Virus record (IMG/VR): IMGVR_UViG_3300044640_002221
Location: 1-64,000 of that record
DNA length: 64,000 nt
DNA from: a virus
Reading direction: 5' to 3' (one strand)
The position numbers were made by a program, and so were the translations under genes. Of the stretch, positions 53,680 to 57,411 are shown one piece after another. The notes under the pieces were generated by a model. The model saw nothing but the letters and a program-made list of their open reading frames with translations, had not been told where the DNA came from and made no database searches. Position 1 is the first letter of the stretch; every line of letters starts with the position of its first letter.

Positions 53680-55871
53680 AAAATAATAGCTGCCTTATTA
53701 GACAGCTTAGAGTAGTATCTCAATTTTTCTTCTTTAACTGTCTGACTGCAGCTTATTAATTGCTTCTTGAGCATCAACAAAACTCTGTAAAGCTTTTGTT
53801 AACTCTTCATCACTAATAAAGAACAAGTTCTTTCTGTCTGTATAAGATAAAGCGTTAATTAGTAGTTGACCTACTCTTAATTCTGGGCAGGCAGTTTTTG
53901 CTACTTGTATTGTTGTTAAAAGGTCTTTCATTTTTCACCTTCTGTTGTTTTGCAATAGCTATTATATTACTCTTCCTCTTTTCTTTTTTCTCTGATTGGG
54001 TTTAACAAACGTCCCCAAGTTGGATTTTTTAAGACCGTAGAGGGTACAAAGTTTAGAGTTTGTTCTAACTCTCTTAGTTTGAACTTACTAGCTAGAAGCC
54101 ATATAGACCTTAGCATAAAAGACCTAAAGTAGTTCTGATCTTCATCTAACTTGTGTCTATGTGCTCTCTCAACCTTTAATCTACTCTCCCAGTTGTTTAT
54201 TCTAGCGTTAGAAGTAATCTGTTCCTGCTTTAAAGTCTCAAGTTTATCTAGAATAATGTTTATGCTTTTATCTAGCTGTTCTACTTTTACCTTTTTATCT
54301 GGAGTATTTACTACTTTCCACTTTGTTAAGATACACATCTGCTGCCGCAGCATTCTTCGCTTATGAATAGCACTTCTCCTCCAGTCTAATCTTTCTGCGG
54401 ATGTGTCTTCTGTTGAACCTTTTAGTTCTCCTGACTTCCAAGCTAGTATTGCTGTTTCTATCTGAGCTGTTATATCTCCTATTACAAAGTAAAGGTCACT
54501 CAACATCTCTTCACACTCTTCTAGAGAAGAAGGCAGCTTTGTAGTTTCATAAACTATTGGTGGCATTCCCCATACTCTGGGAAATCCGTAGGTGTCATGT
54601 TGTTCTTCTACAACCTCTCGGCGGTAACTTTGTAAGTCTTCTTGCATTGCTTTACTCTCTTTAGCTTATTGTGTGAGTATAACCTGTTTATATGGCTAAT
54701 AAACAGTTTCTTTTTACCTGATATAGGGCGTGTCGGCTTCTGCACCTTTACTAAACTGTCTAGGTCAAGCCCTGCCAGCACTTGTAAATCTTCTATGCAC
54801 AAGTCTGAAAAGCTTAACTCATGTAGGTGCATACCTACCTTTGTAATTACTGTATTGCTTGTGAAACCGTTAACAGACTCTTCTACCAAGTCTAAGAACT
54901 TTAGTCTGATCGGTTTCTTTAGTCTGATCGGTTTCTTTAGTAAACATAGCTTTACAGGTTTTCCATTATTCTCTGGTTTATAAAGAGCTGGGCTACTCCA
55001 GGTCTTTTCCTGTCTATACTCACTATCTTTCAGATAAGGTTTCACTATCTGCTTGATAGTCTTAATTAAATGCTTTTTGAGAGTATCTAACTCTTGGTCT
55101 GTTAGTAATGTCATAAACTGCCTTTAGTAATCGCAACCACAATCTGAACTGCTATCGTAAGAGCTGCAATCTGAACTACTATAATCATTACAGTCAAAGG
55201 TACTGCTACTGTCATCAAAAGCAGTGTGGGTAAAACGGTAACTTTCATCAACCCAGTCTTCCACTTTTGCTGTATTTAAGTTGTACTCCTTTTTACTATG
55301 GTATCTACGACTTTCTGAAGTATTTACATTAGTCTGTTTCAAAGGCTTTATATGTAATCCAGCTTTTCTTCTATCTTCTGAGTTATAAGGCCACTGAAAG
55401 TCTGGTGAGTTGAAGAACTCTTCCTTTTCTTTAGTAGTTATCCCTGCTATTTCTTCTTGAGTGGGTGCAGCCTTTCTCTGACCTAAGTTATGCACGGCAG
55501 GGTCATAAGGCCAATCAATATGTTGTTTAACTAATTCATTAAGTTCTTCATTTGTCATAAAGCCTCCTGGTTAAATATTACAAAACTCCCCTAGCTTATT
55601 CTACTAGAGGAGCTTGCGATTTGCTCTATTAGAGTCTAGATAATCATCCAAATATTCTTGTAAGCAGACAGAGCCGCAGAAAGTTCCTTGTTCATTTTGA
55701 GAATGAGGTACTAGGACTTCACTTCTAATAGTTAAAGTAACCAGCAGACTGTGGTTTAAGTCCATCTTTAGACTCCCTCCACACCAGTCGCAGCAATCTT
55801 TCTTACCTATAGCTCCTGTCATTGTTTGCCTCCTAGATATGACAAAGGGAGGGTAATACCCTCCCCTCTTA

Positions 55872-56123
55872 TCAATGAAGCCAGATTGGTCCAATATTGT
55901 ACTCAGCTCGTCCGGTCAAGGGACTGCCAGCAGCTTTAAAGAACTCAGTCTCTACTTCCACCATTATTCTGTGAATCAGCTCTGCTGCTTCTTTAGCCTC
56001 CGCGTCCCAAGCAAACTTAGGTGTAGTTGGTCTACCATCTTTATCAATTACGTTACCGTGTTTATCAAAGAAGGTTTTAGTCTCATCTATCCAAGTCTTA
56101 CCCGGAGCGCGGGCGTTTAGTTC
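55872..56123 (-). CDS. polA: Family A DNA polymerase, last exon (exon 4 in window)
   Basis: Begins GAA CTA (E of VHD-E) and ends AKEAAELIHRIMVEV...GRAEYNIGPIWLH*, a typical PolA C-terminus. Confidence 0.9.
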   Translation of the reverse strand, partial: ELNARAPGKTWIDETKTFFDKHGNVIDKDGRPTTPKFAWDAEAKEAAELIHRIMVEVETEFFKAAGSPLTGRAEYNIGPIWLH

Positions 56124-56274
56124 CACTTGTGTTACGAGTAGCCCGGTTCCGACTACTCTCTCTAGCTTTCACTAGAGGTCAGATCATATCATCCTCAGTT
56201 ATGAGGGAGCCTGTTTCGAGTGTCCGACACCCTACGTCTTGTGACTGACCGTTGAACCTTGTACGTGCTATAAG

Positions 56275-56355
56275 TGGATGCTAAAAGAGTTGAACTTTTC
56301 TTGGGTTTCCCCACGACTTATGAGGTCGTTGCCTAAACCGCTCGGCCAAGCATCC
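56275..56355 (-). tRNA. tRNA with CAU anticodon (elongator Met or Ile2), type II long variable arm, inside intron 4
   Basis: Acceptor GGATGCT/AGCATCC + A; D arm GCC/GGC; anticodon arm ACGAC-CTCATAA-GTCGT; V arm GGG-GAAA-CCC; T arm AAAAG-TTCAACT-CTTTT; 81 nt, CCA not encoded. Confidence 0.9.
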
Positions 56356-56427
56356 ATCTTTATAGTTTAGCACCTTGGCTGCTGATTGTCCATATCCTTG
56401 TTCTTTTTAAACCTGATGACAGCTAGT

Positions 56428-56703
56428 TTAACAAAGGTCTAAGTTACCTTCTGAACTATAATCTACGTCTGTCAGATGGTCTTGACAACATAAGTAAACT
56501 TTTGCGTCTGCTTTTACCAATCCATCTGCTAACAACTTCTGCACCTTATCTAAAAGCTGCTGAACTGTTATTGCTTCTGGGGGTTTAGGAGCATAGTTTT
56601 GAGGTACTAGTAATGCCCCTATGGTCTTTAAACCTGGATGAGGTGCAGCACCACTTTTGGTTATTGTTTTAGGAAGTATGTAAGGTTCTGTCATGTCTTC
56701 CAC
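56428..56703 (-). CDS. Hypothetical 91-aa protein in the P5 region of intron 4
   Basis: ORF flanked by complementary UGAUAGUUA/UAGCUGUCA and CCUUG/CAAGG segments; no endonuclease motif seen. Confidence 0.55.
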   Translation of the reverse strand: MEDMTEPYILPKTITKSGAAPHPGLKTIGALLVPQNYAPKPPEAITVQQLLDKVQKLLADGLVKADAKVYLCCQDHLTDVDYSSEGNLDLC

Positions 56704-56815
56704 TATTTATTAACTATCATTATAATCACGCTTGCCGTTTCCAGCTACGTTGTGGTGAACAAGGCTCTGAGGAATTTCCAGCAATTTAAGCTCTTTACCC
56801 ACGACCAACTAATCA

Positions 56816-56905
56816 ATCGTGCACCGCGTTTAATATTATAATTCCTGTTCCTTTAGCCTCCTTTCGTACGCGTATCATGGCTTCTTTCATCATCTGGGCG
56901 CATTC
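56816..56905 (-). CDS. polA: polA exon 3 (90 nt)
   Basis: Translates ECAQMMKEAMIRVRKEAKGTGIIILNAVHD, the segment between IQG and motif C. Confidence 0.92.
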
Positions 56906-57000: not shown

Positions 57001-57411
57001 CTAGAAGGGAGAGGCGTAACCTTTCCAGTCTTCTATGGTATTTAAGGTTTGAGTCTCAGTGGTCAGTCCAGCTATTAAAGTAGAGACACCTCCTTGTAAG
57101 TTTGGTAGTTTTATTCCTTTAGAAGGATTAGCTCTTTCAAACTCTGCATAAGCTTTATCAGAGTAAAACTGCCCCGTGCTTTGCTGGAGTTGGTCTCTCA
57201 GCTTAGTGTTCTCTTCCATAGCAACAATCAACTTTTCAGTCAATTGTTGGTTCTGTGTTTGCAGGTCAGCTACTAAAGCTTGATAGCTACTGGTGAGAAC
57301 TATCTTGGTGTCAAGTATCTTCTCTAAGTCAGAAGACTCGACGAACTGTTCGTTGTGGTTGTTCATTTGTTTAGATAACGTAAGGTTGAACAATTGCGCG
57401 GTACTCTTCAA
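57001..57411 (-). CDS. Hypothetical coiled-coil protein (intron 3 cargo)
   Basis: 136-aa ORF inside L8 of intron 3. Confidence 0.55.
   Translation of the reverse strand: MKSTAQLFNLTLSKQMNNHNEQFVESSDLEKILDTKIVLTSSYQALVADLQTQNQQLTEKLIVAMEENTKLRDQLQQSTGQFYSDKAYAEFERANPSKGIKLPNLQGGVSTLIAGLTTETQTLNTIEDWKGYASPF

Follow-up and report, generated by a model that had tools for sequence, protein, structure and literature searches.

A tRNA(CAU) gene in the P6a loop of a predicted group IA2 intron of a cyanophage DNA polymerase gene

Phage group I introns are commonly seen as selfish elements with a homing endonuclease as their only cargo, and phage tRNAs as free-standing genes. The locus described here raises the question of what a complete tRNA gene is doing inside such an intron, and how a tRNA could be obtained from within a ribozyme. 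It is located in the first 64 kb of the IMG/VR record IMGVR_UViG_3300044640_002221 (136,923 nt, about 71% complete, 40% G+C; hereafter G000), and this whole stretch of 64,000 nucleotides is referred to as the window. The window belongs to a large freshwater cyanophage with the intron in its family-A DNA polymerase gene (polA); the stretch is contained in lake-water metagenomes, and the upstream polA exons match the Pfam family DNA_pol_A and its 3'-5' exonuclease domain. A first-pass annotation of the window had proposed a complete tRNA inside the P6a loop of a group I intron at 56124-56815, and this arrangement was borne out on the minus strand, on which all intron, tRNA, open reading frame (ORF) and polA exon features described below lie. 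The explanation that we favour, with moderate confidence and on the basis of sequence comparison, is that an IA2 intron carries a working phage tRNA as P6a cargo in its endonuclease slot, from which host RNase P and RNase Z would release it. The intron probably also serves as the tRNA precursor.

The intron and the tRNA within it

The 81-nt cloverleaf (56355-56275) is enclosed by the P6a strands GUGCUA (56373-56368) and UAGCAC (56270-56265), as the first-pass annotation had read them, with a 12-nt leader and a 4-nt trailer between stem and tRNA. UAGCAC is followed by the P6 3' strand and then by J6/7 (UUCAAC). The tRNA search that had been proposed for 56124-56815 agreed with this reading: ARAGORN called a tRNA(CAT) at 56274-56355, the sole tRNA in the window, and Rfam RF00005 matched 56275-56355 with 50.8 bits against a cut-off of 29 (E about 1e-9). 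Moreover, the full cloverleaf forms in the minimum-energy fold of the P6 region. The features, from the 5' exon to the 3' exon, are as follows, with G001 denoting a related phage that is introduced in the next section.

56816-56905, minus strand: polA exon 4 (..ECAQMMKEAMIRV..NAVHD), its last residue being the motif C Asp; direct reading, same exon in G001
56124-56815, minus strand: predicted group I intron, subgroup IA2, 692 nt; hand-read helices, Rfam core alignment and compensatory changes
56800-56811, minus strand: internal guide sequence; direct reading, identical guide in G001
56734-56745, minus strand: P5b hairpin GCUG-GAAA-CGGC, capped by a GNRA tetraloop; direct reading
56428-56694, minus strand: 88-aa ORF in the P5 extension, counted from ATG (92 aa from stop to stop)
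56368-56373, minus strand: P6a 5' strand GUGCUA; reading and fold prediction
56356-56367, minus strand: 12-nt leader AACUAUAAAGAU, overlapping the -10-like TAAACT and predicted to pair with the trailer; promoter scan and fold
56275-56355, minus strand: tRNA(CAU), 81 nt; ARAGORN and Rfam RF00005
56265-56274, minus strand: trailer CUUA (4 nt), then the P6a 3' strand UAGCAC; reading and fold prediction
56177-56258, minus strand: 3' half of the catalytic core, from the P6 3' GG to P7 3'; reading and Rfam, 94.8% identical to G001
56250-56245 and 56244-56218, minus strand: P7 GGUCAG and P7.1-GUA-P7.2, within the core 3' half
56212-56207, 56206-56193 and 56182-56177, minus strand: P3 3' strand AGGCUC, P8 and, after J8/7, the P7 3' strand CUGACC
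56124-56176, minus strand: P9 (56176-56161), P9.1 (56158-56136) and the terminal G (56124); identical in G001
55872-56123, minus strand: polA exon 5 (ELNARAPGKTWID...GPIWLH, then stop); sequence reading and homologues

The 5' exon ends with AAC GCG GUG CAC GAU (..NAVHD, 56816), and the first intron nucleotide is 56815. The guide GUCGUG (56805-56800) and the exon sequence CACGAU (56821-56816) form P1, whose splice-site pair is a U.G in which U56816 faces G, and P10 is formed by UAGUU (56811-56807), just 5' of the guide, and AACUA of the 3' exon (56122-56118). At the other end, the intron closes with its terminal G at 56124 and the 3' exon starts with GAA CUA AAC (ELN..). The junction rebuilds ..NAVHD/ELNARAPG.. 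(the slash marks the intron position), and the reading frame is exactly restored. Homologues of exon 5 were sought by exhaustive phmmer searches, in which the intron-less homologues P0005, P0009 and P0015 run uninterrupted over the junction as ..VHDEINIRLPG.., ..VHDELIVQAPG.. and ..IHDEVLITAPG..; the longer junction stretches of the three uninterrupted relatives recovered with the exon 5 query are ..NVVHDEINIRLPGNCWLD.., ..QVHDELIVQAPGRSWID.. and ..IHDEVLITAPGRCWLD... Since these relatives are continuous there, the intron lies exactly between the codons for the catalytic Asp and Glu of motif C. A further candidate, a small intron of 184 nt after ..PNLQGG near 57087, was rejected, because the same ORF of G001 is without this motif.

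IA2 introns of phage polymerase genes have been reported to lack P2, to have P7.1 and P7.2 joined by GUA and to carry endonuclease genes in P6a (PMC3428280). The hallmarks of this subgroup are present here, with no P2 and with GUC-ACAA-GAC, GUA and GGGUGUCGGACACUC at 56245-56218 forming P7.1 and P7.2 joined by GUA. P3 (GAGCUU/AGGCUC), P4 (UUGCUGG/UCAGCAG), P7 (GGUCAG/CUGACC) and P5a (CCUUGUUC/GAACAAGG) were placed by hand, as were P5, P6, P6a, P8, P9 and P9.1, and the Rfam group I model (RF00028) puts P3, P4, P6, P7, P8 and P9 in the same places. In addition, P3, P5, P5a, P5b, P6a and P7 stay paired via two-sided changes among G000, G001, a third phage (L318) and a sequence reconstructed from a sequencing run (X15); the P5b hairpin, for example, has the compensatory versions GUUG-GAAA-CAAC in G001 and GUCG-GUAA-CGGC in L318. 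The element is classed as an IA2 group I intron, for which self-splicing activity is predicted. In a Bacillus phage stretch that has 65 nt of P3-P5 in common with it, no Rfam group I intron was reported at E <= 0.01.

The canonical features of a tRNA are intact in both G000 and G001, including U8, A14, G18G19, U33, the CAU anticodon, A37 and the T loop UUCAACU. The discriminator is A, and like its cyanobacterial homologues the gene does not encode CCA. The variable region of 13 nt, GGGGAAACCCAAG, forms a 3-bp stem with a GAAA loop, and the letters of the variable arm include GGGGAAACCC. Covariation was assessed in an alignment of 15 tRNAs, the phage copy and 14 cyanobacterial and phage relatives, in which all 23 cloverleaf pairs are paired in every sequence (all 312 cells) and 19 of them show two-sided change, a result reached in none of 500 shuffles, with slid controls being 29-42% paired. 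When compared with the host type, the phage tRNA differs in 7 of 7 acceptor pairs and 4 of 5 T-stem pairs, with pairing fully kept.

Besides the tRNA, the intron contains an ORF in its P5 extension, which had been described in the first-pass annotation as a non-endonuclease ORF of 91 aa; the location and the lack of an endonuclease match stood, and the length was corrected to 88 aa. It is closed off by the stem UGAUAGUUA (56719-56711) / UAGCUGUCA (56425-56417). Against the endonuclease families LAGLIDADG, HNH and GIY-YIG no match was obtained, and Pfam gave only a weak match to Mnd1-HTH (E 0.018). The AlphaFold model, with a predicted local distance difference test (pLDDT) value of 49, has no usable fold, and the Atlas returned no named look-alike, its look-alikes there being without a family. 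Only two homologues were found among 5.8e9 proteins, with 84% and 65% identity (P0002 and P0003). The ORF is absent from both G001 and L318, and is an insertion relative to them.

As for the polA gene around the intron, a G+C-rich hairpin (GGGGAGGG-UAUUA-CCCUCCC) followed by a U-rich stretch lies directly 3' of the stop codon (window 55845-55872) and is a likely terminator; a similar hairpin is present 3' of the G001 gene. In G001, the polA pieces at G001:C1:135378-137756 and 138670-140469 (L007-L010) are found within long open frames of 806 and 638 aa without stops, which hold in-frame inserts of about 320 and 420 aa. These inserts are intein-like and are located at the places of the intron and endonuclease inserts of G000.

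Related introns and their cargo

In the phage G001 (IMGVR_UViG_3300046777_002658; 196,877 nt, 94% complete), this intron is found at the same ..SVHD/EL.. site, with the tRNA in the same P6a frame and without the P5 ORF. Between G000 and G001, nucleotide identity is 80% in exon 4 and 76.3% in exon 5, whose third codon positions are 56.6% identical; the intron 3' half reaches 94.8% and the tRNA 98.8%, where the sole change turns the variable loop GAAA into GAGA with the GNRA loop kept. P5, P5a and P5b differ between the two phages in a compensatory manner, which argues against a recent transfer of the whole intron and for a sequence constraint that is tighter on the tRNA than on the structural helices.

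The same design was found beyond these two records. Run X15, which is labelled with a single organism, contains a version with the tRNA in P6a that is about 91% identical, with a depth of about 64-71 and the P5 ORF included; its sequence was rebuilt from tables of differences between contigs and window and is uncertain. Compensated changes are seen there in P6 (GAG/CUU), P6a (AAGCU/AGCUU), the leader-trailer helix, the ORF-closing stem and a T-stem pair, and the ORF has an in-frame deletion of 3 nt. In a contig of the seawater run X17, the intron and tRNA are kept and 435 other nt replace the 283-nt ORF segment (56427-56711). Since this insert is a different one, the P5 extension is a second, variable cargo site.

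L318 (IMGVR_UViG_3300007177_000055; record 72% complete) carries a homologous intron at ..NTVHD/EINFEAPG.., with 81% column identity to G000 in the 5' half. Its P6a (GUCUAG/CUAGAU) encloses a LAGLIDADG_2 ORF (27.9 bits) and no tRNA, so the tRNA of G000 occupies what is the endonuclease slot of this intron lineage. No copy of the phage tRNA was found in the 72%-complete L318 record. The LAGLIDADG gene itself (L318:1710-2430) apparently spans two overlapping frames and may be a frameshifted, decaying endonuclease.

Further relatives were sought in several ways. An intron-specific 22-mer occurs only in G001 among viral contigs and in no metagenome contig, a search for related loci with exon 5 alone gave no match, and a search for longer homologous proteins gave none. 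The intron 3' half and exon 5 had no match in 401 sampled cyanobacterial genomes.

Identity of the tRNA and codon need

A pattern made of the D arm and anticodon loop of the phage tRNA matched 48 contigs of viruses, over 120 of metagenomes and over 120 of genomes, the last being nearly all cyanobacterial. The cyanobacterial counterpart is a tRNA(CAU) of 73 nt that shares its D arm and anticodon arm with the phage tRNA. Microcystis has three CAU tRNAs: the initiator, one with a standard D arm, and a third of the phage tRNA type, whose D arm resembles that of plastid trnI-CAU. The phage tRNA is not an initiator, as G1-C72 is paired and the anticodon stem is without a run of three G-C pairs. Its antisense strand can be aligned over the full length with Rfam Plastid-ycf2 at 23.4 bits, which is below the cut-off of that model, and the reverse complement of this family is the plastid trnI-CAU gene. 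The cyanobacterial tRNA-Ile(CAU) reads AUA once the host enzyme TilS has turned C34 into lysidine. Judging from these resemblances, the phage tRNA is likely to be of the cyanobacterial and plastid trnI-CAU type, that is, a tRNA-Ile(CAU) and a decoder of AUA, and the alternative identity would be that of an elongator tRNA-Met.

This identity would also suit the codon use of the phage. AUA accounts for 39% of its Ile codons (21 per 1000 codons) versus 9.8% (6 per 1000) in 582 ORFs of cyanobacterial loci, and no second CAU tRNA was found in the G000 or G001 records; an AUA decoder would fit the need of an AUA-rich phage in which this is the sole CAU tRNA. Neither a phage TilS nor a phage CCA-adding enzyme was found in the 71%-complete record.

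The length of the phage tRNA has its own counterparts. An 81-nt version with the same 8-nt expansion of the variable arm, a rare feature in which a GNRA loop caps a 3-bp stem, was found in two cyanobacterial metagenome-assembled genomes (MAGs), one of them a Crinalium sp., and in one metagenome contig. These 81-nt copies are ordinary free-standing chromosomal genes, with the variable region GGGGCAACCCAAG or CUCGAAAGAGAAG versus GGGGAAACCCAAG in the phage, which matches the GGGGCAACCCAAG of the Crinalium MAG gene. The variable-arm stem of the 81-nt tRNAs co-varies, being GGG/CCC or CUC/GAG (L205:4602-4682, L264:1122-1202 and L114:3833-3913). The common expansion hints at the donor lineage of the phage tRNA, which appears to be a diverged copy of a cyanobacterial tRNA-Ile(CAU). 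Because of the long variable region, a class II tRNA of Leu/Ser type whose anticodon had mutated was also considered; this reading was rejected when the cyanobacterial tRNA(CAU) of 73 nt and the variants of 81 nt came to light.

Several other tRNA(CAU) genes came to light in these searches. A tRNA(CAU) of 84-88 nt with a Ser-like D arm and a long variable arm is present at about 30 other metagenome loci as well as at L058, L063-L067 and L077, and its acceptor stem is plastid trnI-like (GCAUCY..). L077 is a 102-kb contig which, in addition to a member of this family, contains small subunit ribosomal RNA, transfer-messenger RNA (tmRNA) and many tRNAs, and is therefore probably from the plastid of an alga. 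In some plastids, trnI-CAU genes with a long arm may be widespread. The 216-kb viral contig L040 contains a free-standing tRNA(CAU) of cyanobacterial type and, at L040:2984-3306, an Rfam permuted tmRNA (86.8 bits) that overlaps two tRNA matches. In run X15, a 45-nt contig whose depth is roughly double that of the phage-like contigs matches the 5' half of the tRNA (56312-56349) with three changes, the pattern expected of a host-type, Microcystis-like tRNA(CAU). It may be the tRNA of the organism with which the run is labelled, which may be the cyanobacterial host.

Proposed release of the tRNA and comparison with known systems

In the favoured explanation, the tRNA would be transcribed within the polA precursor, and the ribozyme would fold around it and splice the exons with P6a pointing away from the core. 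Host RNase P would then cut the 5' end, and RNase Z and a CCA-adding enzyme would finish the 3' end, with the tRNA coming mainly from the excised intron. After modification to lysidine and charging with isoleucine, it would provide AUA decoding for the AUA-rich phage genome and might benefit the phage. The 81-nt cloverleaf should not disturb folding, because P6a points outward and tolerates inserts of hundreds of nt, as is found in the IA2 introns of T4 td (PMC3073962) and Pf-WMP3 (PMC3428280).

Several observations weigh against this explanation or parts of it. The group I covariance model, which the first-pass annotation had suggested as a check, aligned the core correctly and yet scored only 13.7 bits for G000, far below its gathering cut-off of 50, and the intron copy of G001 gave no Rfam group I report at E <= 0.01; the low score is attributed to an insert of about 300 nt in P5 and one of about 110 nt in P6. 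RNA coverage in run X22 (fish gut) spans 55879-55985 only, at the 3' end of exon 5, and other RNA-labelled runs cover tiny shares of the stretch; no RNA run reaches the intron, and this coverage carries no information on expression. By prediction, the leader pairs with the trailer in a helix that prolongs the acceptor stem, with U(-1) opposite A73, and such a helix would slow RNase P and RNase Z. Together with the promoter-like element discussed below, this pairing weakens the idea of a strict coupling to splicing. With regard to identity, the choice of Ile over elongator Met is based on elimination and on likeness to the plastid gene, and recognition by TilS and isoleucyl-tRNA synthetase (IleRS) is not assured, because all seven acceptor pairs differ from the host tRNA. 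Some of the near-identity between the two phages could stem from the intron 3' half having been exchanged laterally. Moreover, the anticodon arm of the X15 reconstruction has a 4-bp stem and an 8-nt loop, ARAGORN gives it no isotype, and the tRNA region there is more diverged than the exon; if the reconstruction is right, decoding may not be kept in every lineage.

The tRNA might be functional and yet be expressed from its own promoter inside the intron, with P4', P6 and P6a doubling as -35 and extended -10 elements, in which case the nesting would be a mere parking place and the supply of tRNA independent of polA transcription and splicing. A promoter-like TGGACA-17-TGcTAAACT is located at 56392-56364, its -10 ending 8 nt before the tRNA 5' end, and it could permit independent synthesis of the tRNA. 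Some 14 nt upstream of the free-standing cyanobacterial homologues there is a TAAACT or TAGACT, so that the gene may have brought along a portion of its native promoter when it was captured, and TGCTAAACT is kept in G001. However, promoter-like sites are barely above chance (3 found versus 1.7 expected), the -35 is not kept in G001 (TAGTCA), and no terminator was found after the tRNA, while the conservation of the -10 is explained by RNA structure, since it overlaps P6a; we consider an own promoter to be unlikely. A cloverleaf that is not used as a tRNA is also rather unlikely, whether it be a decaying passenger after capture or a part of the ribozyme that has a structural role or recruits protein as a rigid extension of P6a. 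It would be consistent with the X15 reconstruction, in which the anticodon arm is disturbed and P6, P6a, the leader-trailer helix and the other tRNA stems are paired by compensation. However, all canonical tRNA features are intact in G000 and G001, and the tRNA is conserved at 98.8% while the nearby P5, P5a and P5b drift freely with compensation. Nor would a strut need the exact cyanobacterial D arm and anticodon loop, and the homologous intron of L318 has the same design without any tRNA.

The enzymes that would mature the tRNA might also act earlier, as the first-pass annotation had suggested alongside maturation from the excised intron, with RNase P and RNase Z cutting the P6a loop of the unspliced precursor to give a two-piece ribozyme, held by P3, P6 and P6a, that either splices still or fails, so that tRNA processing would tune polymerase output. 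The tRNA is located in a terminal loop, and its excision would leave the intron halves joined by P6a (6 bp), P6 and P3. In support of such an arrangement, the T4 td intron split in L6a can reportedly splice in trans (Galloway Salvo et al. 1990). Group I splicing is, however, usually co-transcriptional and fast, which counts against cleavage before splicing. The polymerase intron of Pf-WMP3, for instance, splices during transcription (PMC3428280). The predicted leader-trailer helix should delay RNase P as well, and a regulatory cut of this kind is regarded as unlikely.

Under the favoured explanation, in which a working tRNA is carried in P6a and released from the intron, a conserved tRNA in the endonuclease slot would connect phage introns with phage tRNAs. 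The intron would be of use to its phage by providing AUA decoding for a genome rich in AUA, and the tRNA would gain a way of being expressed that needs no promoter and perhaps a means of moving between genomes. In addition, substrates of RNase P and RNase Z would lie inside a ribozyme that must fold for DNA polymerase to be produced, and the interplay of tRNA processing and self-splicing would be directly testable in a natural system. Carrying tRNA genes may be something that phage introns do in general, although it has gone undescribed. It is rather doubtful that phage group I introns act more widely as mobile tRNA carriers, with a P6a slot that is repeatedly refilled by tRNAs spreading from phage to phage with the intron, with host RNase P and RNase Z cuts inside the ribozyme as a built-in element of when or how strongly the polymerase is expressed, and with tRNA maturation and polymerase splicing controlling each other.

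A full-text literature search found no intron-encoded tRNA for phage or bacterial group I introns, and intron-encoded tRNAs were found only in fungal mitochondrial group I introns and eukaryotic spliceosomal introns. In the fungal cases, Ophiostoma minus has in atp6-i1 a LAGLIDADG ORF with a tRNA-Ile after it, and a cox1-1281 intron encodes a tRNA-Arg (PMC7902536). These resemble the phage locus in having a tRNA gene within a group I intron of a protein-coding gene. However, they are organellar, were given as annotation remarks without placement in the ribozyme fold or analysis of conservation, and have the tRNA beside an endonuclease ORF, whereas the phage tRNA stands alone in P6a and is conserved across related phages. 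Eukaryotic intronic snoRNAs and tRNA genes (PMC10324135, PMC4999229) are likewise small functional RNAs carried in, and possibly released from, introns of protein genes; the likeness is one of analogy only, since those introns are spliceosomal and the processing enzymes are different.

The reverse arrangement, with which the first-pass annotation had fairly contrasted this locus, is that of cyanobacterial and plastid tRNA-Leu(UAA) and tRNA-fMet genes interrupted by group I introns, as referred to in passages of PMC3984707 and PMC3428280. Both combine a tRNA with a group I intron in the same host phylum. In those genes, however, the intron is in the anticodon loop and is removed to make the tRNA, whereas in the phage the tRNA would be cut out of an intron loop. 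The free-standing phage tRNA(CAU) genes of the 48 IMG/VR contigs have nearly identical D and anticodon arms, and they too presumably serve AUA decoding in AT-rich phage genes. They are 73 nt in length and their flanks share nothing with the intron described here, whereas the intron-borne tRNA is 81 nt long, has a GNRA-capped variable arm and other acceptor and T stems, and lies inside a ribozyme.

As for introns of the same kind, the cyanophage Pf-WMP3 has an IA2 intron in its DNA polymerase gene with the homing endonuclease gene of I-PfoP3I in P6a (PMC3428280), and the T4 td intron has the I-TevI gene in its P6 loop (PMC3073962). The intron of the window is like those of the Pf-WMP3 type in its host gene, its IA2 architecture (no P2, GUA-linked P7.1 and P7.2, and P10) and the loop that is used for cargo, and L318 is exactly of this type, with its LAGLIDADG gene in P6a at the same VHD/E site. 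It differs from both Pf-WMP3 and T4 td in carrying an RNA gene and no recognisable endonuclease, and in having a second insert, the 88-aa ORF, in P5.

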